Shown here: piece by piece, positions 9,709-58,106 of the stretch | How positions within the stretch are numbered: position 1 is the stretch's first letter | Layout of the letters: each line of letters begins with the position of its first letter | NCBI GenBank assembly: GCA_964354805.1 | Contig: CAYHBD010000030.1 | Coordinates: 6,800-70,799 of the forward strand | Source of the DNA: an uncultured archaeon | GTDB lineage: Archaea > Iainarchaeota > Iainarchaeia > Iainarchaeales > GCA-2688035 | Direction: 5' to 3' | Length of the DNA: 64,000 bases | Position numbers and translations under genes: made by a program | Notes under the pieces: generated by a model | Databases searched by the model: none | Told to the model about the DNA's origin: nothing | What the model saw: the letters and a program-made list of their open reading frames with translations, nothing else

Positions 9709-10668
9709 TCAGCTTCTTGCAATTGAGGCGATTTCTTCAAGGCTTTGCGCTTTCTCAAACAGGCGCATTTTTTCTGGGTTCGATGCAAAAAACCTGACTG
9801 CCTGTGTCTTCATCCTGCCCAAATAAGCGCTGATGCCGAACTTTTTGCACAATTCAAGGTATTGCAGGAAAGCCTGCTCCCTGGACAGGAGGTTTGCGCC
9901 ATCAGGCGCGCTTTTCCCAAGGCTTTTTTCCAGCGGGAAAAAAGGCTTGTTGCCCAGAATTTCCGCAAAAATTCCGGGATTGCCTATTGCCGCACTGCCA
10001 ACCATTGCAGCATCACAGCCGGTCTTTTCAAGCATTCGCTCAAAGCTAGGCTTGTTGATTACACCGCCATTCCCTATTACAGGAATGCCAACAGCTTTCT
10101 TGACGCGCTTTATTGCCACAAAGTCAACCAGGCCCCTGTTTTCCTGCTTAATGGTTCGCCCATGCACAGCAATTGCCGAAGCGCCCGCTCTTTCAATCTG
10201 CTTTGCCAGCTTGATTGTGCGCAAAACATTAGGGTCAGACCTTATTTTTGCAGTAACAGGCTTTCCAAGGACATGCCAGCAGGAAATGATTTCGCAAATT
10301 CGCGCAGGCCTCCTCAAAAGCGCGACGCCTGCCCCCTGGTTAAGCACATTACCCGAAGGGCATCCCAGGTTCAAATCCAAAAAATCGAATTCCTTTTCAG
10401 CAATAAGCAGTTCAACCGCCTTTTTCATGCTTTCAACCCTTGCCCCAAAAACCTGCATTGCCAAAGGCCTGTCCTCACCGCAGGTCTGGGCAAGCCTTTT
10501 GACAGAAAGATTGTTCCTTATAAGGGCCTCAGAATTAATCATTTCCGAATAGCACAAGGAAGCGCCCTGCTCCCTGGCCAAAAGCCTGAAGGCAAGGTCA
10601 GTAACCCTGTACATTGGCGCCAAAACAAGCCTGTTTTCCATTTTTGTGCCGGCAATGCTGAAATCCAT
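9709..10668 (-). CDS. dus: tRNA-dihydrouridine synthase (Dus family)
   Basis: LAPMYRVTDLAFR, DLNLGCP and AVHGRT motifs. The start is set at MDFSIAG. The track ORF extends to 10764. Confidence 0.8.
   Translation of the reverse strand: MDFSIAGTKMENRLVLAPMYRVTDLAFRLLAREQGASLCYSEMINSEALIRNNLSVKRLAQTCGEDRPLAMQVFGARVESMKKAVELLIAEKEFDFLDLNLGCPSGNVLNQGAGVALLRRPARICEIISCWHVLGKPVTAKIRSDPNVLRTIKLAKQIERAGASAIAVHGRTIKQENRGLVDFVAIKRVKKAVGIPVIGNGGVINKPSFERMLEKTGCDAAMVGSAAIGNPGIFAEILGNKPFFPLEKSLGKSAPDGANLLSREQAFLQYLELCKKFGISAYLGRMKTQAVRFFASNPEKMRLFEKAQSLEEIASIARS
9908..9949. repeat. Hairpin-repeat family copy inside the Dus coding region, in frame
   Basis: GCGCTTTTCCCAAGGCTTTTTTCCAGCGGGAAAAAAGGCTTG. A 9-bp stem CTTTTTTCC/GGAAAAAAG. 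The core is near-identical to copies at 52784-52815 and 58038-58070. It encodes NKPFFPLEKSLGKS. Confidence 0.75.
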
Positions 10669-10831: not shown

Positions 10832-10946
10832 AGCCCCGGGAGGGATTTGAACCCTCGACCCCCGGCTATCTCGAATTTTTCTTTTCGCACGCCTTTTTCT
10901 AAAAGGCTTTTACGAGGTCGGTGCTCTACCACTGAGCTACCAGGGC
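10832..10946 (-). tRNA. tRNA-Thr (anticodon CGU) with a 43-nt canonical 37/38 intron
   Basis: Manual cloverleaf: acceptor GCCCTGG/CCGGGGC, D arm GCTC-AGTGGTA-GAGC, anticodon loop CTCGTAA after splicing, T arm GAGGG-TTCAAAT-CCCTC. BHB motif: central helix CTCG/CGAG flanked by 3-nt bulges TAA and ATA. Confidence 0.85.
10868..10910 (-). other. tRNA-Thr intron, made of hairpin-repeat family sequence
   Basis: Sense sequence AAAGCCTTTTAGAAAAAGGCGTGCGAAAAGAAAAATTCGAGAT, with a 7-bp hairpin GCCTTTT/AAAAGGC followed by GCGAAAAG. Confidence 0.8.
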
Positions 10947-13039: not shown

Positions 13040-13861
13040 ATGCTGAACAGAAAAGGCCTTGCGAAGCAATTTTCCCAAAGCTTTTTTTCCGAAGGAAAAA
13101 AAGGCTTAGCAAAGCAATTTTTCCCAGGGGTTTTTTGCACGCGAAGCAATTTTCCCATCTTGCAAAACCCAAGGTTTTGCGAGACCTCGCAAAAGCGAAG
13201 CTTTTGCAAGGAGGCTTTTTTTGCAACGGCAAAAAAAGGCTTAAGCGAAAAAGGCCGAGCTGAAAGCCGTTTTCCCTGGGATTTTTTTGCAACAGCAAAA
13301 AAAGGCCAGGAGAGCGCGCCATTTGAGCTGCTGGTTGCTGTAATAATAATGGGCTTTGTCATATTCATTGGAACAAGTGTAATGCAGCAGGTAAATTGCG
13401 AGAAATGCAAGGGCGAAACCAATGCAAAGCTGGATCGAATGGCAACCGCGTTACAGAATGCTGACGAATCAGGCAGTATTCAACCAAACGTAAGTTTTTT
13501 TTTAAGCGGCTGCTTCAACCAACAGGAAGAAAAAATCTGGATTGAGGACGAAGACGATCCCCAAGTGTGTGCTGCCTATCATTGCGGTGAGAAGCAGTTA
13601 TGCACTTTGCTGAAATACTATGGTAATGGCTGCGGCGGGTTCAGCATCATAAAGTGCCTGGATATCACCCCTGACGCCGATTTTCCTTCCATATCAGGGG
13701 GCAGGTGCGAAGAAAGAGATGGAATGCAATTAGTGGATTTCGAGAAAAGGGAGGAGCCGATAGCAACAGGGGGCAACAAGCAGGGCAACTATTTGCTGTG
13801 GAACAAGACAGGGCAGGGCGACACTTTTTCAACAATCTGCGCTTACAGGAAAGAGGGTTGA
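13040..13861 (+). CDS. Cys-rich type IV pilin-like protein whose leader peptide carries a 249-nt repeat array
   Basis: ATG 13040 with SD AAGGTG. Removing 13059-13307 gives MLNRKGQESAPFELLVAVIIMGFVIFIG, a canonical class III signal peptide. The ORF also reads through the array without a stop. Confidence 0.6.
   Translation: MLNRKGLAKQFSQSFFSEGKKGLAKQFFPGVFCTRSNFPILQNPRFCETSQKRSFCKEAFFATAKKGLSEKGRAESRFPWDFFATAKKGQESAPFELLVAVIIMGFVIFIGTSVMQQVNCEKCKGETNAKLDRMATALQNADESGSIQPNVSFFLSGCFNQQEEKIWIEDEDDPQVCAAYHCGEKQLCTLLKYYGNGCGGFSIIKCLDITPDADFPSISGGRCEERDGMQLVDFEKREEPIATGGNKQGNYLLWNKTGQGDTFSTICAYRKEG
13059..13307. repeat. Array of hairpin-repeat family modules (249 nt) flanked by the direct repeat AAAAGGCC
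   Basis: AAAAGGCC occurs at 13051-13058 and 13300-13307. Perfect hairpins: 13081-13090/13094-13103 (10 bp), 13162-13169/13173-13180 (8 bp), 13215-13224/13229-13238 (10 bp), 13282-13290/13295-13303 (9 bp). Confidence 0.85.
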
Positions 13862-15037: not shown

Positions 15038-15849
15038 AGCTTGGCGAAAAAGGTCCTGTTTTGCGAAGCCTATTTTCCCCAGGCTTTTGCAACAGCAAAA
15101 GGCTGTTGCGAAGCAAAACCCATTTCCCTGGGATTTTTTGCACGCGAAGCAATTTTCCCAAGGCTTTTTCACGAAGTGAAAAAGGCTTAAGCGAAAAAGG
15201 CCAGTCCAGTTTGACTGATTCCATGTTTTTCCTGGTAATAGCCAGCATTTTGAGCACTTGGCTTTTCTATTCAAGCGCAACCTACGGCCTGACAATAGAC
15301 CAGCAAATTTCAAGGCAGGGCAGGGAGGAATACACCAAGTCTGCGCTTGAAACAATTTTGTACAGCAGCGCGCCGAGGCAGGCAGGCCTTTCTTTGGAAG
15401 AAGCATCAGAGATTGACTACCTGCTTGCGGCAATAAAAGAGGACTACGCTGATGACACTGAACTGGATGAAACAAAAGCAATTCTTTTCCAGAACATAAA
15501 TGCCGTAATGCAGCCGCTTGCAACAAACAGCAACTACCTTTTCTACATATATATTGCTCAAAAAAATAAATTTGTTGTCACTTTTTTGTACGCAAGCGAA
15601 GCAAAAAACGATGACGGCTGGAGCTTAACCGGCAACAAAATTGTTTTTTCCTGCGTGCCGCCAAGCAAGCAGGCAGTGGAAGAATTCCTGCTTACGGTTG
15701 GCAGGATGTCTGTCAGCAACAGCAGAATTCAGCTGCTTGAATCAAAAGAGCCGGCTCCTGACAGATACGATGCCCTAATCACTTTAATCACTTGGATTCC
15801 AACGCCAGTTGATGAAAGCGACCTAAACTGCACTAAATTCACTGGCTGA
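15028..15849 (+). CDS. Type IV pilin-like protein whose leader peptide carries a 147-nt repeat array
   Basis: ATG 15028 with SD GGTGG. Removing 15056-15202 gives MEIKLGEKGQSSLTDSMFFLVIASILSTWLF. The ORF reads through the array in frame. Confidence 0.6.
   Translation: MEIKLGEKGPVLRSLFSPGFCNSKRLLRSKTHFPGIFCTRSNFPKAFSRSEKGLSEKGQSSLTDSMFFLVIASILSTWLFYSSATYGLTIDQQISRQGREEYTKSALETILYSSAPRQAGLSLEEASEIDYLLAAIKEDYADDTELDETKAILFQNINAVMQPLATNSNYLFYIYIAQKNKFVVTFLYASEAKNDDGWSLTGNKIVFSCVPPSKQAVEEFLLTVGRMSVSNSRIQLLESKEPAPDRYDALITLITWIPTPVDESDLNCTKFTG
15056..15202. repeat. Array of hairpin-repeat family modules (147 nt) flanked by GCGAAAAAGGTC / GCGAAAAAGGCC
   Basis: Direct repeats at 15044-15055 and 15191-15202. 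Hairpins at 15084-15090/15095-15101 and 15164-15172/15176-15184. The 27 nt at 15134-15160 are identical to 13131-13157. Confidence 0.85.
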
Positions 15850-21868: not shown

Positions 21869-22603
21869 CTAAATCCTGAGCGCGAATGTTTCCCTCTTTT
21901 TCTGTTTCCCTGTCCTGTCAACTCCAATCAGCTTGAATGTTTTCGTTGCATCTGTTTTGAATTCTTTTTCCAGCTGCTTTACAGCCAAGGCAGCTGCTTT
22001 TTTTGATCCGACTATTGCATCGATTGAGTTTTTTTTCTGTGTTGCGGAAACAATTGCGGCCAGACCGTCTCTTTTTTGCAGGGATGCGAGCAATTGCCTC
22101 AGCCTGTTGAAAGCAGCAGCTGCTTTTTCCCCCCTAAGCTGCACTATTGCCTCAAAGTAATTGCTTTTCAGCTTCATGCAAGCATCGCACTGCATTGCGG
22201 GAAAAGAGATTGTTGTTTTCCTTTCAACCAGAACAGGCGTGTTTTCAATTACGCCCTTTGCCGTTACGATTGCCTGCATTTCCTTTTCACTCAACCGCTG
22301 CAATTCAACTGACAGGGCAGCATCTGTCAGCTCCTTAACCTTGCATTTTTTTTTGACGAACTGCTTCAATAGTTCCAAGTCAAAAGCGTGCATTTTCCCT
22401 GAAAGCAAAATTTTTCCGCATTGCTTGCAGCGCTGCAACTCGATTTTTTCAGGCAACTGCAGAAGCGTGTGCTCTTTCAGGAAGCACTGGAGGCAGCTGC
22501 CCCTTACAAAAAGGCTGTCTGTTGCACCGCAGCTCGGGCAAAATAATCTGCCCAAAGCCTTTTTGCCTTTTGGCAAAAAGCCTTGGGAAAAGTTGCTTCG
22601 CAT
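21869..22603 (-). CDS. NMD3-family protein (archaeal homolog of the ribosome export adaptor)
   Basis: N-terminal double zinc motif FCPSCG...CLQCF...CKQCGK. Start set at ATG 22603, 4 nt after the upstream stop. The track ORF extends to 22645. Confidence 0.7.
   Translation of the reverse strand: MRSNFSQGFLPKGKKALGRLFCPSCGATDSLFVRGSCLQCFLKEHTLLQLPEKIELQRCKQCGKILLSGKMHAFDLELLKQFVKKKCKVKELTDAALSVELQRLSEKEMQAIVTAKGVIENTPVLVERKTTISFPAMQCDACMKLKSNYFEAIVQLRGEKAAAAFNRLRQLLASLQKRDGLAAIVSATQKKNSIDAIVGSKKAAALAVKQLEKEFKTDATKTFKLIGVDRTGKQKKRETFALRI
22551..22601. repeat. Hairpin-repeat family copy forming the first 16 or so codons of the NMD3-like gene
   Basis: Gene-sense sequence GCGAAGCAACTTTTCCCAAGGCTTTTTGCCAAAAGGCAAAAAGGCTTTGGG, with a 9-bp hairpin CTTTTTGCC/GGCAAAAAG. 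It encodes RSNFSQGFLPKGKKALG, similar to the peptides encoded by the pilin arrays. Confidence 0.75.
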
Positions 22604-24808: not shown

Positions 24809-24991
24809 TTATTTAACCACAATCGCTTTCGCCGGGCAGCTTGCCTCGCAGGCCCTGCACTGAATGCAGTCATTCGGGTTTTTTACAACGGCTTTCCCTT
24901 TCTGCATTTCGAAAACATTGACAGGGCAAACCGAAACGCAGGTGCCGCAGCCAGTGCACTTGTTTTTGTCAACATAAGGCCTTTCAGCCAT
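24809..24991 (-). CDS. 2x[4Fe-4S] ferredoxin
   Basis: Two CxxCxxCxxxCP motifs: CTGCGTCVSVCP and CIQCRACEASCP. Confidence 0.85.
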   Translation of the reverse strand: MAERPYVDKNKCTGCGTCVSVCPVNVFEMQKGKAVVKNPNDCIQCRACEASCPAKAIVVK

Positions 24992-25060
24992 TTTGCCATC
25001 ACCTCTGGTTAAAAATTATTTTTTCCTTTCATTTACCTCTTTCTTTATCTCTGTTTAAAA

Positions 25061-25294
25061 TCACTTTTTCTTTCCCTTTGCCTCTTTTTTAATTGCCTCA
25101 TTCATTTCCTTGAGCAAAGAATCAATTTCCTTTTCATCCATGCCATGCGCTTTTGCGCCCTGCTCGACTGTTTCAAAAACGGCAACATGGCAGCCAACGC
25201 AATGCAACCCCCTGCCAAGCATTACAGGCACGGCATCAGGAAACACGCTGACCACTTCGCCAAGAGTCGTATTTCTCTCAATTTTTTTAACCAT
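25061..25294 (-). CDS. DUF1858-type redox disulfide protein
   Basis: TLGEVVSVFPDAVPVMLGRGLHCVGCHVAVFETVEQGAKAHGMD. Start set at MVKKIERN. The track ORF extends through the duplicated sequence to 25399. Confidence 0.6.
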   Translation of the reverse strand: MVKKIERNTTLGEVVSVFPDAVPVMLGRGLHCVGCHVAVFETVEQGAKAHGMDEKEIDSLLKEMNEAIKKEAKGKKK

Positions 25295-25300
25295 AAGGAA

Positions 25301-25400
25301 ATCAATCACAGAAAAGTTTTTTAAATGCCCCCTGACAGCAACGTGCTCAAAGCAATCACAGAAAAGTTTTTTAAATGCCCCTAACGGCAACGTGCCCAAA
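25301..25400. repeat. Tandem duplication (2 x about 49 nt) covering the 3' end of nrdG
   Basis: CAATCACAGAAAAGTTTTTTAAATGCCCC...GCAACGTGC.CAAAG occurs at 25304 and again at 25353. Copy 2 encodes the NrdG C-terminus (HVAVRGI). Confidence 0.8.
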
Positions 25401-26081
25401 GAAAGGCTTTAACGCAGCGGCAAACTGCAGCAGTTCCTCCCTGCTGTATGCCCTGCTGCCCTGCATTTTTTTATCCAAAAGCGGAACGCTTGAATCAAAC
25501 TGCTGCAAAAAGAATTGCTCGGCGCCCTGCAGCCATTCGCCGATTGCAACCAAATCGGCTTTGCTGTGCAATGCAGGCACAATGGTTATCCTGAACTCGT
25601 ATTCAACGCCGCTTTCTTTAATCAAGTCAATGCTGCGCTGGATTTTTTGCAAATCAACCCTGGCGCCGGCTGCTTTGCTGTATTTTTCTTTCGCAGCCTT
25701 TATGTCCATTGCAATGTAGTCCACTGCTTTGGCGGCAATCAGCTTTTGCAGCATTTCCGGTTTTGAACCATTTGTGTCAATTTTAACCAGCAAGCCCAAG
25801 CGCTTGGCCTTTTTGCAGAAAGCAGGCAGCCCTGCATGCAGCAGCGGCTCTCCGCCTGAAATGCATACGCCATCCAGAAACTTTCTTCTGTCGCGAAGGA
25901 AACGCAGCGCTTCTTTTTCCGTTATTTTTACGCCTGTTTCCTTGTCCAGAACAAGCTGGGCGTTGTAGCAAAAGGGGCACCTGAAATTGCATTTTGGCAG
26001 AAAAAGCGTTGCAGCAACCTTGCCCGGAAAATCAATCAAAGTTGTCTTTTGCACTCCTTTAAAGATAAGCAAACCATACAC
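25371..26081 (-). CDS. nrdG: Anaerobic ribonucleotide reductase activating protein (radical SAM)
   Basis: CNFRCPFCYN radical-SAM cluster motif, and adjacency to nrdD. Confidence 0.9.
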   Translation of the reverse strand: MYGLLIFKGVQKTTLIDFPGKVAATLFLPKCNFRCPFCYNAQLVLDKETGVKITEKEALRFLRDRRKFLDGVCISGGEPLLHAGLPAFCKKAKRLGLLVKIDTNGSKPEMLQKLIAAKAVDYIAMDIKAAKEKYSKAAGARVDLQKIQRSIDLIKESGVEYEFRITIVPALHSKADLVAIGEWLQGAEQFFLQQFDSSVPLLDKKMQGSRAYSREELLQFAAALKPFFGHVAVRGI

Positions 26082-26121: not shown

Positions 26122-26271
26122 TTATACTTTGCCCATTGCTTTTTTCTCTGAGAATGTCTGCCTTTCCTTGAATTCTTCCTGTTTGCCCAGATTCCAGTTC
26201 TGGACTGGCCTCAGGTATCCTACAACCCTGCTGTAGACCTCGCATGGCGCGTTGCATTTTGGCATTTTCAT
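26122..26271 (-). CDS. Stand-alone glycyl-radical peptide of class III RNR (the detached NrdD C-terminus), 49 aa
   Basis: Below the ORF-track size cut-off. MKMPKCNAPCEVYSRVVGYLRPVQNWNLGKQEEFKERQTF... carries the RVVGY glycyl-radical motif. SD GGAGGT lies 3 nt upstream of the ATG. Confidence 0.75.
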   Translation of the reverse strand: MKMPKCNAPCEVYSRVVGYLRPVQNWNLGKQEEFKERQTFSEKKAMGKV

Positions 26272-26317
26272 CGACCTCCGTTTTTTAATTTTAATTTTTT
26301 GCCAATCTCAAATAAAA

Positions 26318-28333
26318 TCACTGCATTTGCCGCACTGTTTGCTTTGCTGCCTCTTCTTTTTTTTCGCTCACTTCAACAGGGCAGTTGAAGTGCTTGCCCT
26401 TGACATAGCCGTGAACAGGGCAAACACTGAAGGTTGGCGTAATAGTGTAATACGGCATCTTGAAGCCGTAAGCTATTTTTTTAACCAGCCTGCCGCATGC
26501 CTCTCCCGATTCCATTGCCTCTCCAAGGAAACCGTGCAATACTGTTCCGCCAGTGTATTTGCACTGCAGTTCATCCTGGTGCTTTAATGAATCAAAAATG
26601 TCGTCAGTGAAGTCAACAGGCAGCTGTGTGCTGTTTGTATAATATGGTGCATCCTTGCCTGCTGTTTTTATTTCCGGGTAGTTTCTTTTGTCTATTCTCG
26701 CAAGCCTGTAGGAGGCGCCCTCTCCGGGAGTTGCCTCCAAGTTGAATATGTGGCCTGTCTCTTTCTGGAATTCAGTCAGCCTTTCCCTGAAGAAGTCAAG
26801 TGATTTTAATGCAAGCTGCCTTCCTTCCTTGCCTGCAATGCTTGTTTTCAGGAAATTTTCGCAGCATTCATTCATTCCAATCAGACCTATTGTTGAAAAA
26901 TGGTAATCCAATGTGCCCAAATAATGCTTGCTCCATGGCAGCAAGCCCTGCTGCATGTTTTTGTTCACTTCCTTTCTTTTGATCTCAAGGCTTTCCTTCG
27001 CAAGATAAAGCAGTGTATCCAGCCTCTCGAAGAAATCATCCTCGTCTTTTGCAAGAAAACCAAGCTTTGACATATTGATTGTCACAACTCCAATGCTGCC
27101 TGTTTTTTCACCAGAACCAAACAGGCCGCCTGTTTTTTGCTTCAGGTCGCGCAAATCCAATTGAAGCCTGCAGCACATTGAGCGAACATCGCTTGGCTTG
27201 AGCGAGCTGTTGATGAAGTTCTGGAAGTATGGAATGCCGTACTTTGCAGTCATGTTGAAGAGAGCCTGCGCGTTCTCGCTTTCCCAATCAAATTCTTTCG
27301 TAATATTGTATGTCGGAATTGGAAAGGTGAAAACCCTGCCGTTTGCGTCCCCTTCGGTCATTACCTCAATGAATGCCTTGTTAATCATATCCATTTCATC
27401 CTGGAAATCAGCATATGTTTCATCGGCAAGCATTTGACCGCCGTAAATCACTGGCATGTCCCTCATGTCAGATGGAACAGTCCAATCTAGGGTAATGTTT
27501 GTGAATGGCACTTGGTTTCCCCAGCGTGATGTTGCGTTTGTTGCAAAAATGAATTCCTGCAATGACTGCTTTACCTTCTTGTAATCCAGATTGTCTTTTG
27601 CAACCAATGGCGCCAGGTAAGTGTCAAAGCTGTTGAATGCCTGGGCTCCAGCCCACTCGTTCTGCAAGGTTCCCATGAAGTTGACAATCTGGCCAAGTGC
27701 TGCATTGAAGTGCTTTGCAGGCTTTGCAGCAATCCTGCCTGGCACTCCACCGAAGCCGATTTCAAGCAGCTGCTGCAGGCTCCAGCCTGCGCAGTATCCT
27801 GAGAATGTGCCGTTTCCCAAATCATGGATGTGGAAGTCGGCGCTCCTGTGCGCGTTTGATATCTCTTCCGGATAAATGTTTCTCAGAGCATACTCTGCAA
27901 TGACTGCACCGCTTATGTGTGCCTGCAATCCTGAAAGGCTGTAGGAGGCGTTGCTGTTTTCCGCAACCCTCCAGTCAGTCAGCATTACGTAATCGTCAAC
28001 GATTTTATTGATTTTGTTCAGGAAAGCGGCTGCATCCCTCAGCTCTGCTCTTTTCTGCCTGTAAATGATGTATGCCTTTGCTGTTTTTGCGTGCCCTGCC
28101 TCAATCAGTTCCTTTTCAACAGTGTCCTGAATCTCTTCAACGCCCGGAGTCTTTGTCCCGAATTTTTTCTTCAGGGCGTGCACTATTCTGTCGGTCAGGT
28201 CAACTGCAATCTGCCTGTTTGTTCCGCCGACGGATTTTGCGGCAGCAAAAATAGCGTCCTCAATCTTCTTTCTGTCAAAGGGGGCAGTGCTGCCGTCCCT
28301 TTTTCTCACGCTTTCCAAAAAACGCTGAACCAT
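26318..28333 (-). CDS. nrdD: Anaerobic ribonucleoside-triphosphate reductase (class III) catalytic chain, lacking the glycyl-radical tail
   Basis: N-terminal ATP-cone-like KRDGSTAPFDRKKIEDAI, then the NrdD core. It ends ...CPVHGYVKGKHFNCPVEVSEKKEEAAKQTVRQMQ* just before the expected second CxxC and RVxGY. Confidence 0.9.
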   Translation of the reverse strand: MVQRFLESVRKRDGSTAPFDRKKIEDAIFAAAKSVGGTNRQIAVDLTDRIVHALKKKFGTKTPGVEEIQDTVEKELIEAGHAKTAKAYIIYRQKRAELRDAAAFLNKINKIVDDYVMLTDWRVAENSNASYSLSGLQAHISGAVIAEYALRNIYPEEISNAHRSADFHIHDLGNGTFSGYCAGWSLQQLLEIGFGGVPGRIAAKPAKHFNAALGQIVNFMGTLQNEWAGAQAFNSFDTYLAPLVAKDNLDYKKVKQSLQEFIFATNATSRWGNQVPFTNITLDWTVPSDMRDMPVIYGGQMLADETYADFQDEMDMINKAFIEVMTEGDANGRVFTFPIPTYNITKEFDWESENAQALFNMTAKYGIPYFQNFINSSLKPSDVRSMCCRLQLDLRDLKQKTGGLFGSGEKTGSIGVVTINMSKLGFLAKDEDDFFERLDTLLYLAKESLEIKRKEVNKNMQQGLLPWSKHYLGTLDYHFSTIGLIGMNECCENFLKTSIAGKEGRQLALKSLDFFRERLTEFQKETGHIFNLEATPGEGASYRLARIDKRNYPEIKTAGKDAPYYTNSTQLPVDFTDDIFDSLKHQDELQCKYTGGTVLHGFLGEAMESGEACGRLVKKIAYGFKMPYYTITPTFSVCPVHGYVKGKHFNCPVEVSEKKEEAAKQTVRQMQ

Positions 28334-52689: not shown

Positions 52690-52830
52690 TTTGAAAAAAT
52701 CAATGCTTGCAAAGCAATTGCCCTTTCCCCCATAATGCCAAGCTAAAGAATTATTTGTTTTTGTTCCATTGCTTGGCATTATGCCAAGGCTTTTTTCCCG
52801 CAGGAAAAAAGGCTTATCCAAAGAAAATTG
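52690..52830. repeat. Composite palindromic element in the psmA-SBDS spacer, including a hairpin-repeat family core
   Basis: Hairpin at about 52701-52720. A perfect 13-bp stem CATAATGCCAAGC (52731-52743) / GCTTGGCATTATG (52771-52783). Family core CCAAGGCTTTTTTCCCGCAGGAAAAAAGGCTT (52784-52815). Confidence 0.7.
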
Positions 52831-57985: not shown

Positions 57986-58106
57986 TGGGCCCGACCGGGA
58001 TCGAACCGGCGACCTCCACCATGTTGAAGACCTTTTTCCCAAGGCTTTTTTCCGCAGGAAAAAAGGCTTTGTCGAGGTGGCGTCATAACCGCTAGACCAC
58101 GAGCCC
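57986..58106 (-). tRNA. Intron-containing tRNA, probably tRNA-Val (GAC). The anticodon loop assignment is uncertain.
   Basis: Acceptor GGGCTCG/CGGGCCC, anticodon stem CCACC/GGTGG, variable loop AGGTC, T arm GCCGG-TTCGATC-CCGGT. The loop 5' part is TCGACA, followed by a 48-nt insert. The best model gives loop TCGACAT, with C at position 33. Confidence 0.65.
58022..58069 (-). other. Intron of the tRNA-Val-like gene, made of a hairpin-repeat family core
   Basis: The plus strand reads CCTTTTTCCCAAGGCTTTTTTCCGCAGGAAAAAAGGCTTT. The core is near-identical to 9917-9948 and 52784-52815. Confidence 0.7.

Follow-up and report, generated by a model that had tools for sequence, protein, structure and literature searches.

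The class III ribonucleotide reductase (RNR) encoded in the window, the whole 64,000-nt stretch of DNA that was analysed, is very probably a functional enzyme specified by two genes, whose separately translated products would assemble as subunits, with the activase NrdG acting on the small one. Comparison with relatives indicates that this split is a conserved two-gene design; it is neither an intron nor the result of a recent insertion, and the gene is not dead. The nrdD of the window is intact; the proper annotation is two genes, and the labels pseudogene and interrupted gene do not apply. The features of the locus, all on the minus strand, are as follows.

26318..28333, minus strand: nrdD large subunit, 671 aa, matching the Pfam ATP-cone and NRDD families and NF006126
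26369..26392, minus strand: perfect 9-bp hairpin CACTTCAAC/GTTGAAGTG with the loop TGCCCT (Cys-Pro codons)
26318..26377, minus strand: tail of the large ORF after CP, VEVSEKKEEAAKQTVRQMQ plus TGA, with no counterpart in canonical NrdD
26272..26317, minus strand: A+T-rich spacer of 46 nt between the nrdD ORFs, which houses the ribosome-binding site
26274..26279, minus strand: Shine-Dalgarno sequence GGAGGT, 8 nt before the second ATG of the small ORF and 2 nt before the first
26122..26271, minus strand: nrdD small subunit (glycyl-radical-domain peptide), Pfam NRDD E 1e-11, matched by NrdD models only
26215..26229, minus strand: RVVGY glycyl-radical motif (radical Gly codon 26218-26220), aligned to RIVGY of Thermotoga maritima NrdD (4COI) through the unsplit relative P0046
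25371..26081, minus strand: nrdG radical-SAM activase (TIGR02495 NrdG2, E 2.8e-60), directly downstream of the small ORF
24809..25399, minus strand, co-oriented: a gene with a DUF1858/redox-disulfide domain and a 2x[4Fe-4S] ferredoxin gene (PF08984, TIGR03980, Fer4 families)

Division of the NRDD domain between two open reading frames

A first-pass annotation had described a break in nrdD, a gap of 46 nt, the Shine-Dalgarno sequence GGAGGT and an ORF of 49 codons with the glycyl-radical motif, and all of these coordinates were confirmed. The large ORF matched the ATP-cone (PF03477, E 1e-24) and NRDD (PF13597, E 8e-170) families of Pfam, and it scored 1024 bits against NCBIfam NF006126, for which the cutoff is 548. 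The Pfam NRDD profile was divided between the two ORFs, with positions 1-526 of 562 spanned by the large ORF and 525-562 by the small one; the NF006126 profile of 684 positions was divided likewise (3-655 and 644-683). Judged by these profile matches, such a partition is far above chance. The large chain contained the ATP-cone, the catalytic barrel, the finger-loop cysteine pair C387/C388 (MCCRL), and the zinc ligands C638, H641, and C651. The cysteine pair (SMCCRLQLD) was invariant in 32 homologues and was aligned to ASCCRL of T. maritima NrdD through P0046, an unsplit single-chain relative, and every catalytic invariant was retained. The 3′ end of the large ORF read ...HFNCPVEVSEKKEEAAKQTVRQMQ*, with the stop directly past the CP of the second zinc knuckle plus a short tail. 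No glycyl-radical motif was present in the large chain, and no second RVVGY-type motif was found elsewhere in the 64-kb window. The zinc ribbon and the radical motif were spread across the two ORFs: the large one supplied C638, H641, and C651, and the small one supplied RVVGY and the Cys of MPKC.

The small ORF encoded 49 aa (MKMPKCNAPCEVYSRVVGYLRPVQNWNLGKQEEF...) from its first ATG and 47 aa (MPKCNAPCEVYSRVVGY...) from its second ATG at 26265-26263. The second ATG, which opens the reading MPKC, was the homologous start and agreed with the family N-terminus M[PSAK][KQE]C, conserved as Met-x-x-Cys, and the gene call of Logan in a 97% relative (L161) was also 47 aa. The second ATG is most likely the start used. 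In every close relative examined (n=8), a Shine-Dalgarno sequence and an ATG two codons ahead of the Cys were present, the former as GGAGG or AGAGGTGA located 5-9 nt ahead of the ATG (8/8). In this genome, Shine-Dalgarno-like 5-mers preceded 9 of 67 crude gene calls (about 13%) compared with 2.3% of random positions; because only this fraction of gene calls carries one, Shine-Dalgarno-led initiation of the small ORF is inferred from conservation.

Both nrdD ORFs were intact in dozens of diverged relatives, and the dN/dS of the small ORF was 0.03-0.10, with synonymous sites saturated. Both pieces adjoin nrdG and are judged to be under purifying selection. The order of nrdD-large, nrdD-small, and nrdG, followed by the DUF1858 and ferredoxin genes, was kept in L161-L166. 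The products of the last two genes may supply electrons.

Distribution of split nrdD

The split was found well beyond the window. Of the 120 homologues that best matched the large ORF, about 97 terminated 1-25 residues past CP without RVxGY. Among the fetched loci that could be classified, nrdD was split in 62 of 151, from both archaea and bacteria, including Nanoarchaeia, Micrarchaeota, Pacearchaeota, Omnitrophota, Lentisphaeria, Acidobacteria, Actinobacteria, and many Proteobacteria, as well as the cultured Roseateles cavernae and Microbulbifer marinus. The relatives that the scan of the genome collection gave among the matches listed had 53-68% identity, and the closest relatives were fetched individually. 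Stand-alone radical peptides were also numerous: 511 clusters matched the peptide of the window, the best 120 of them being 42-85 aa long, and 6190 clusters matched the peptide of Cupriavidus necator, the best 120 of each query spanning 42-108 aa. A 49-aa protein identical to the small ORF of the window was present in JGI data (P0121).

The geometry of the two ORFs varied among the split loci. The relative frames 0, 1, and 2 were all found, and the spacing ranged from overlap to more than 190 nt. The usual arrangement among close relatives was a small ORF in the +1 frame that overlapped the end of the large ORF, leaving no spacer (L081-L084, L086, and L163-L166). The 97% relative had the same architecture as the window in two independent assemblies, JGI 3300035659 and Logan SRR11721627. 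Its frame offset was 2 compared with 1 in the window, a difference made by a single-nucleotide indel: the spacer was 47 nt in L161 and 46 nt in the window.

Canonical single-chain relatives read CPxC-G...EVYSRVVGY, which places the break inside the second zinc knuckle. Unsplit relatives also existed in which the tail was held in frame as a loop, such as CPVEVGGGEKMAKCNKDTEVYSRVVGY in P0046, and the tail is therefore tolerated as protein. The AlphaFold2 model of P0046, made to look for disorder of the loop, had a mean pLDDT of 76.9, with about 76-82 across the loop, a moderate confidence that does not discriminate between an ordered and a disordered loop.

Structure of the junction

The 118-nt interval 26260-26377 consisted of the 57-nt tail of the large ORF, the stop codon, the 46-nt spacer, and 12 nt from the start of the small ORF. 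It had been described as an insertion that splits nrdD. The position of the break inside the second zinc knuckle was upheld, but the insertion reading proved misleading, as the ORFs of the closest other relatives overlap without any spacer; the comparison of orthologs that had been set as the test of this reading revealed the same natural split in many lineages. The 57-nt tail was also present in relatives, and the 46-nt spacer was limited to the lineage of the window. As had been noted, deletion of the interval yielded ...HFNCPKCNAPCEVYSRVVGY, the perfect hairpin was located at the 5′ junction, and the tandem AAAATGCC AAAATGCA was located at the 3′ junction. The strings that had been said to recall a repeat family were present, but the junction was not a copy of the palindromic repeat family of the window. 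No further copy of the interval was found in the window, and insertion of a mobile element was rejected on this single-copy occurrence.

The conserved tail of the relatives (..EKEVEKNAKMQCTV*) was the other-frame reading of AAGGAGGT, the ATG, and MPKCNAQCEV. The tail of the window aligned with the junction of L165 with a score of 25, which was equalled by 7 of 500 shuffles. This tail probably stems from a copy, since decayed, of the region with the Shine-Dalgarno sequence, the start codon, and MPKC that overlaps the large ORF in relatives. The tail peptides MQCTV, VLVAN, and MQYAH were considered as a functional motif or an intein remnant and were rejected as the other-frame reading of the Shine-Dalgarno sequence, the ATG, and the N-terminal codons, an explanation that rests on the close relatives of the window, the VLVAN and MQYAH tails belonging to more distant lineages outside the DNA comparison. 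A split intein was rejected as well, given a tail of 18 aa, an N-terminal extension of 2-4 aa, and no intein match in Pfam. Inteins (PF14890) did occur in other nrdD homologues, at different positions of the protein.

The hairpin at the Cys-Pro codons paired at 9 of 9 positions only in the window and in L161, and at 2-6 of 9 positions in seven other relatives. A functional hairpin was rejected on this lack of conserved pairing; the perfect hairpin is confined to this lineage, is probably incidental, and may have arisen by chance. The window contained about ten distinct perfect 9-bp hairpins (16 overlapping matches versus 2.2 expected from shuffles), and most of those other than the nrdD junction site belonged to the palindromic intergenic repeat family. 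The 191-nt junction folded at -38 kcal/mol compared with a shuffle mean of -43 (z = +1.39), no better than shuffles. A search of the whole 64 kb against Rfam at the gathering threshold returned three tRNAs and no intron.

Alternative explanations

Four other readings of the locus were weighed against two separately translated subunits. Programmed +1 frameshifting or coupled re-initiation could give a fused chain, beside or instead of the two pieces, and the +1 overlap seen in L081-L084, L086, and L163-L166 speaks for it; an extra fused product may arise by +1 frameshifting in those overlapping-ORF genomes. In the window, however, the ORFs are separated by a stop codon and a spacer that holds more in-frame stops, the 97% relative has the other offset, and every offset, as well as long spacers, is found in other lineages, which makes this reading very unlikely. 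The lack of a fixed frame relation among relatives and of a conserved hairpin argues against ribosomal bypassing too. The junction peptide of a hypothetical fused chain would read HFNCPKCNAPCEVYSR / NCPKCNAPCEVYSR.

Removal of the 118 nt at the RNA level, which the first-pass annotation had also offered, would restore a single-chain NrdD through a bulge-helix-bulge (BHB) intron that the tRNA splicing endonuclease cuts out, through self-splicing of a small intron, or through bypassing like that of T4 gene 60. The nrdD of T4 carries a group I intron, the archaeal host has intron-containing tRNAs, the hairpin stands at the 5′ junction, short repeats (CC / AAAATGC) lie beside both junctions, and the exact deletion recreates CPKC. 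This is nonetheless highly unlikely and is contradicted by the comparative data. Relatives with overlapping ORFs have nothing to excise and still keep the Shine-Dalgarno sequence and ATG, the boundaries of the interval are not conserved, with overlapping ORFs or in-frame loops in their place, unsplit P0046 keeps the tail as a protein loop, and the hairpin is missing in 7 of 8 relatives. Only tRNAs were recognized by Rfam in the window, and the structure of the junction was no stronger than that of shuffles. No canonical hBHBh′ was found at any pair of sites that would restore the frame, and the top-scoring pairs would lose zinc ligands. The scan was home-made and crude, and two intron-containing tRNAs used as a control scored no higher than the matches at the junction; because these tRNAs were not clean positives, the rejection of a BHB intron rests mainly on the comparative data. 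Group I and group II introns were rejected since no Rfam match was obtained and 118 nt falls below the at least about 200 nt that they need.

Recent inactivation, in which a frameshift or an insertion killed nrdD and both pieces are decaying, had been suggested as well, and the stop is indeed premature with respect to canonical NrdD and the frame changes between the pieces. The comparative data again point the other way: the ORFs are intact across diverged relatives with the low dN/dS given above, the large chain retains all its catalytic invariants, and nrdG and the accessory genes are intact and in unchanged order. C. necator H16 shares the architecture, and its nrdDG is reported to be essential for complete denitrification (PMC2864759, citing Siedow 1999). 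Inactivation is therefore extremely unlikely. An error of assembly or sequencing could in principle have made the stop and the frameshift, as the source is of the metagenome type and A-runs occur in the region, but the agreement of two independent assemblies of the 97% relative, the identical 49-aa ORF elsewhere (P0121), the occurrence of P0004 on eight contigs, and the split in finished genomes such as pHG1 leave this reading hardly credible. The two-piece enzyme with a detachable radical peptide, the remaining suggestion of the first-pass annotation, is supported by the split orthologs, the Shine-Dalgarno sequence and ATG of the small ORF, and selection.

Proposed assembly and origin of the two-chain enzyme

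In the proposed two-subunit enzyme, the 671-aa chain with the ATP-cone, the barrel, and three zinc ligands would be translated up to its own stop, and the 47-aa peptide MPKC...RVVGY... would be translated separately from its own Shine-Dalgarno sequence and ATG. The message of the small ORF would be the operon transcript and possibly also a transcript from an internal promoter, which may lie within the 46-nt spacer. The peptide is predicted to dock into the barrel of the large chain, where its first Cys would be the fourth ligand and complete the Cys/His/Cys zinc site, and NrdG would take the hydrogen from its glycine. The split is most likely an ancient fission of the gene, preserved by selection, within the loop of the second zinc knuckle. 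In the lineage of the window, the overlapping junction would then have been pulled apart, apparently by a short duplication that left behind the 46-nt spacer and a decayed copy, now the tail of the large ORF.

It is possible, though doubtful, that the fission is adaptive and that the 47-aa peptide is a consumable radical cartridge, which is swapped once oxygen has cut it at the glycine and so spares the 671-aa core. NrdG would then activate the peptide off the enzyme, or the peptide would be readily extracted from the barrel, and the core would outlive oxygen pulses. If true, the cartridge would be the obligate RNR counterpart of the rescue of pyruvate formate-lyase by GrcA, and it could explain why split genes are frequent among denitrifiers and other facultative anaerobes (Cupriavidus, Paracoccus, Bradyrhizobium, Ralstonia) and among archaea with small genomes.

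Comparison with known systems

Canonical single-chain NrdD proteins (T4, 1H78/1H79; T. maritima, 4COI/4U3E; P. copri, 8P23) have in common with the window the ATP-cone, the barrel, the finger-loop Cys, the C-terminal zinc ribbon followed by the RVxGY loop, and the NrdG activase. In the window, by contrast, the radical domain is a separate polypeptide, and the CPxC turn has given way to a tail of 18 residues and a new N-terminus.

The closest parallels were two-gene loci on bacterial plasmids. On pHG1 of C. necator H16, WP_011154155.1 (676 aa) is followed by a 142-nt spacer, WP_011154154.1 (66 aa, 'nrdD'), and then nrdG, and the locus on pBoOM27 of Bradyrhizobium ottawaense is likewise annotated in RefSeq as a nrdD of two CDSs. 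With the window both share membership in the NF006126/PRK08270 subfamily, a large chain that stops past the second zinc knuckle, an RV(M/V)GY motif on a small ORF that has a Shine-Dalgarno sequence and an ATG of its own, and nrdG directly downstream. In the proteobacterial type, however, the large chain carries the full set of four zinc ligands (CP.HG...CP.CD). Its small chain is extended by 25-35 aa at the N-terminus and has a single Cys (ERQPCEVW), whereas the small chain of the window is almost without extension. Because the break of the window falls inside the CPxC knuckle, its zinc site would be divided between the chains. In a 1999 paper on nrdD of A. eutrophus, NrdD was reportedly given a mass of 76.2 kDa, a value that the large ORF by itself would account for.

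Small or divided radical enzymes of other kinds were also compared. GrcA/YfiD is an autonomous glycyl-radical 'spare part' protein for pyruvate formate-lyase (PFL) (PMC8683613). Both it and, as proposed here, the peptide of the window are small stand-alone glycyl-radical proteins that work in trans with an enzyme core and are activated by the activase of that enzyme. GrcA is, however, a 127-aa protein of the PFL-type Gly_radical family, encoded at a different place in the genome, that serves as an auxiliary rescue for a PFL with a radical domain of its own, whereas the peptide of the window is the only radical domain of its enzyme, has 47 aa, is of the NrdD type (PF13597), and is encoded inside the operon. 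Membership in GrcA/YfiD was rejected since the small ORF matched NrdD models only and the large chain was without a radical motif. The class II RNR NrdJa/NrdJb of Pseudomonas aeruginosa, as described in PMC9669993 with reference to Crona et al. 2015, is also a catalytic chain divided near its C-terminus between two adjacent genes, with a zinc-finger/Cys module on the C-terminal piece; it differs in being of the B12-dependent class, NrdJb being a large folded protein with redox cysteines rather than the radical site. The intron of T4 nrdD (sunY) and the 50-nt bypass of T4 gene 60 (10.1101/2022.08.31.505936) resemble the locus in having an interrupted conserved coding sequence with a hairpin at the 5′ edge, but signals of an intron or a bypass were not detected in the window, its second ORF has its own initiation signals, and offset and spacer vary freely among relatives.

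Two-CDS pairs of this kind are already annotated in RefSeq, and a description of them was not found in the literature as far as full-text searching reaches: no paper describing a two-chain class III RNR was found in the full-text literature, which included the RNR phylogenies of 2022 and a glycyl-radical enzyme review of 2026. In one major NrdD subfamily, a large share of the members encode the radical domain as a separate peptide of 45-70 residues. A natural two-piece enzyme would suit the questions of how the activase gains access to the buried glycine loop and of possible repair by radical-module swap after oxygen damage, and genetically tractable bacteria with split nrdD include C. necator H16 and Paracoccus denitrificans. 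In large-scale analyses, split NrdD will be mistaken for a truncated enzyme by length filters and single-ORF models. The small peptides are labelled in databases as 'anaerobic ribonucleoside-triphosphate reductase', 'hypothetical protein', or 'oxidoreductase'.

Organization of the nrdD locus

The two nrdD ORFs, their spacer and the genes next to them were arranged in the window as follows.

26318-28333, minus strand: large ORF (nrdD main chain), 671 aa, ending in TPTFSVCPVHGYVKGKHFNCPVEVSEKKEEAAKQTVRQMQ before the stop codon
46 nt, minus strand: A+T-rich spacer between the nrdD ORFs
26122-26271, minus strand: small ORF, 49 codons, beginning with MKMPKCNAPCEVYSRVVGYLRPVQNWNLGKQEEF
25371-26081, minus strand: nrdG, directly 3' of the small ORF (TIGR02495, E 2.8e-60)
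25061-25399, minus strand: DUF1858/redox-disulfide-domain gene, downstream of nrdG (TIGR03980)
Within 24809-25399, minus strand: 2x[4Fe-4S] ferredoxin gene, 60 aa, downstream of nrdG
Downstream of the small ORF, minus strand: beta-CASP nuclease gene, a same-strand neighbour

The Pfam NrdD profile was divided between the two ORFs, with positions 1-526 of 562 on the large ORF (E 8e-170), which also carried the ATP-cone, and positions 525-562 on the small ORF (E 1e-11). NCBIfam NF006126 (684 positions) gave the same partition (3-655 on the large ORF, 644-683 on the small ORF), and the closest named homologues were from Candidatus Diapherotrites. The encoded enzyme belongs to the class III RNR family by every sequence criterion tested. 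The first-pass annotation had described it as an nrdD split by a 118-nt insertion (26260-26377). The deletion arithmetic behind that description was correct on re-check, and the reported hairpin at 26369-26392, GGAGGT and AAAATGCC/AAAATGCA repeat were all present.

The genes for DUF1858 (hybrid-cluster-protein-associated redox disulfide domain) and ferredoxin were kept right after nrdG in the window (24809-25399) and in the fetched loci L161-L166, and the finger loop of the large chain contained a double Cys (MCCRL). The loop and these two genes hint at a ferredoxin/disulfide-based reductant system replacing formate.

Distribution of the split

When the 120 top-scoring homologues of the large ORF were compared, about 97 stopped 1-25 residues past the same Cys-Pro (CP) of the second zinc knuckle without the glycyl-radical motif RVxGY, which was found inside the last 80 residues in 21 of the 120; in P0087 an unsplit chain carried a long C-terminal extension, and a further entry was a contig-end fragment. 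The 49-aa peptide matched 511 protein clusters, the best 120 of which were 42-85 aa long and nearly all stand-alone ORFs, and the proteobacterial counterpart peptide matched 6190 (best 120, 53-108 aa). A total of 168 loci were fetched from GTDB genomes, JGI metagenomes, individual contigs and plasmids. Among the 151 that could be classified, nrdD was split in 62, a canonical single chain (CPxC-G..EVYSRVVGY) in 78, and, in 11, a single chain carrying an in-frame loop where the split forms break. The split loci belonged to Nanoarchaeia, Micrarchaeota and Pacearchaeota among the archaea and to Omnitrophota, Lentisphaeria, Acidobacteria, Actinobacteria and many Proteobacteria among the bacteria, including the cultured Roseateles cavernae and Microbulbifer marinus; plasmid records with a small-ORF homologue came from Cupriavidus, Ralstonia (132 records), Paracoccus and Bradyrhizobium. 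The nrdD of the window is an unremarkable case of a two-CDS architecture that is very widespread and already annotated by RefSeq. A natural split shared by many lineages is what the first-pass annotation had itself named as evidence against an insertion, and the insertion framing carries no weight.

The significance attaches to this architecture overall and not to the window locus. No description of a split NrdD was found in the freely accessible full texts covered, among them papers on RNR phylogeny and insertions (2010-2022) and a glycyl-radical-enzyme review from June 2026. The architecture is in databases already, apparently with no dedicated study. The closest analogies were GrcA for the trans-acting radical domain and the split class II NrdJa/NrdJb for natural RNR fission near the C-terminus.

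Six homologues (P0007, P0008, P0023, P0028, P0030 and P0056; 1071-1113 aa, 74-80% identity) contained, elsewhere in NrdD, a PF14890 intein some 430 aa long, accompanied in one of them by the LAGLIDADG family PF14528; they also ended without the radical motif, so that intein and split occurred together. The single-chain NrdD P0069 (752 aa, Logan assembly) contained two tandem glycyl-radical modules (QNWNEGKKEEFRDRKAF and CGKDSEVFSRVVGYYRPVQNWNKGKKEEF), a duplicated radical domain.

Signals for separate translation of the small ORF

The conserved N-terminus of the small protein in the lineage of the window, Met-x-x-Cys, matched initiation at the second of the two ATGs in the window ORF (26265), which GGAGGT preceded by 8 nt, compared with only 2 nt for the first ATG. 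In all eight close relatives whose DNA was examined, GGAGG, GGAGGTGA or AGAGGTGA was located 5-9 nt upstream of the small-ORF ATG. Most close relatives (L081-L084, L086, L163-L166) had no spacer, and their large ORF continued in another frame across the start region of the small ORF (SD, ATG and initial codons), mostly closing at the TGA within ..TGT GAA.. or ..ACT GAG... The tails of their large chains (EKEVEKNAKMQCTV and others) were conserved because of this overlap, as they translated, in the other frame, AAGGAGGT, 7 nt of spacer and the sequence ATG CCA AAA TGC AAT GCA CAG TGT GA; a functional tail peptide was rejected on this ground.

The relative frame of the small ORF was 1 in the window and 2 in the 97%-identical L161, a difference produced by a 1-nt indel within the spacer. 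All three frames (0, 1 and 2) occurred in other loci, with separations from overlap to >190 nt; the relative frame is unconstrained. The dN/dS of the small ORF was 0.03-0.10 against relatives with saturated synonymous sites, and purifying selection on this ORF is strong. Since L161 showed the same architecture in two independent assemblies, an assembly artefact was excluded. Of the three readings first proposed (a two-piece enzyme, RNA-level excision and recent inactivation), the two-piece enzyme was right, given the conserved start and SD, the selection, the variable frame and the split in many lineages.

RNA-level explanations and origin of the extra sequence

Besides suggesting RNA-level excision, the first-pass annotation had noted the hairpin and a resemblance to a repeat family. 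The 9-bp hairpin was perfect only in the window and L161, with 2-6 of the 9 positions pairing in seven other relatives, and its arms were simply HFN and VEV codons that happened to be reverse complementary; the hairpin carries no weight. The 191-nt junction was no more stable than shuffled sequence (z = +1.39), the Rfam search there revealed no intron or other RNA family, and a crude scan of all frame-restoring site pairs found no bulge-helix-bulge (BHB) motif at the CP/KC junctions. Tests for defining features of BHB, group I and group II introns, bypass or frameshift elements, split inteins and GrcA-type proteins did not find them, and these identities were rejected. The junction was not a copy of the palindromic repeat family of the window, which is probably the one meant in the first-pass annotation, and the resemblance was discounted.

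9912-9948, 13070-13106, 15153-15189, 22548-22584, 52779-52815 and 58034-58070: six copies of the palindromic repeat, about 37 nt, TTTTCCCAAGGCTTTTTTCC-nnnn-GGAAAAAAGGCTT
10832-10946 (115 nt) and 57986-58106 (121 nt), minus strand: tRNA genes predicted by Rfam, both missed by ARAGORN

The repeats may be terminator-like or MITE-like hairpins, and one copy sat in the long "intron" of the tRNA at 57986-58106. Both tRNA genes presumably contain introns, consistent with an archaeal host.

The window and L161 had about 75 nt more than the relatives with overlapping ORFs. The window tail AGCGAAAAAAAAGAAGAGGCAGCAAAGCAAACAGTGCGGCAAATGCAGTGA aligned to the SD-ATG-MPQCNE-stop segment of L165 with a score of 25, reached by 7 of 500 shuffles, and the true SD-ATG region further downstream scored higher (40). 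The simplest reading, moderately supported, is that the overlap region underwent a short duplication, whose upstream copy would have decayed and now be just the end of the large ORF. Such duplication events do occur in this genome, as about 53 nt were freshly duplicated in tandem (two copies of AATCACAGAAAAGTTTTTTAAATGCCCC; 25300-25410). The duplication covered the 3' end of nrdG (..GHVAVRGI and stop) and gave the DUF1858 ORF an artificial N-terminal extension. It was absent from L161, where the nrdG/DUF1858 spacing was 26 nt versus about 77 nt in the window.

Evolution of the break point

The CPxCG...EVYSRVVGY of canonical relatives aligned with CPVCGKAKVDEYMRIVGY of T. maritima NrdD (4COI), which placed the break inside the second zinc knuckle. 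Relatives whose single chain carries the in-frame loop, such as P0046 (CPVEVGGGEKMAKCNKDTEVYSRVVGY), L002 (CPSRHSEEDLRRYGARDASGRAFVPCEVYSRVVGY) and L047 (CPLCDRDN...SLRQPCEVWTRVMGY), look like fused versions of lineage-specific split forms. On a crude neighbour-joining tree built from roughly the final 330 residues of the large chain, at least 15 split/unsplit changes were required; fission and fusion seem to have been repeated at the zinc-knuckle loop, although a tree this rough is indicative only.

Proposed mechanism

The two ORFs had independent initiation signals, were conserved and under selection, and lay adjacent to the activase gene. NrdG would make the radical on the small chain, and the glycine loop of the 47-aa peptide would enter the barrel of the large chain like the C-terminal domain of single-chain enzymes. 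In the lineage of the window, the zinc site could be completed in trans, with the large chain contributing C638, H641 and C651 and the small chain its MPKC Cys, and a shared site would aid assembly of the two chains. Other lineages may hold the pieces together by different devices: CPxC stayed on the large chain in Proteobacteria, and both NrdD pieces had coiled-coil-like tails in some gut and fermenter lineages. By analogy with GrcA/PFL (PMC8683613), one possible advantage of the split is a radical module replaceable after oxygen damage.

In seven loci from fermenter and rumen metagenomes (L106, L107, L109, L116, L120, L159 and L160), the large chain had a Lys/Glu/Leu-rich, helix-like tail (CPKCKAEKEQELRLKLEKLEAERA) and the small chain opened with a similar segment (TLAEVDAEIAAAKEALKN). 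These segments may form a heterodimeric coiled coil tethering the pieces.

Split nrdD and denitrification

On plasmid pHG1 of C. necator H16 (L167), RefSeq annotated a 676-aa "ribonucleoside triphosphate reductase" ending in CPRCDEEILARKRDQLAA before the stop codon, followed by a 142-nt spacer, a 66-aa CDS named nrdD with RVMGY, and nrdG. Genetic evidence from the literature (PMC2864759, citing Siedow et al. 1999) showed that the nrdDG genes are needed for denitrification in this bacterium with the split architecture, which reportedly cannot denitrify completely without the operon. The passage of the CH34 genome paper that names NrdDG of C. metallidurans gave Rmet_5137 and Rmet_5139 with no mention of 5138 (PMC2864759), which left that number between them. 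Both model denitrifiers, C. necator H16 and C. metallidurans CH34 (Rmet_5137-5139), had a split nrdD. The small CDS was named differently by source, as "Oxidoreductase", "hypothetical protein" or "anaerobic ribonucleoside-triphosphate reductase".
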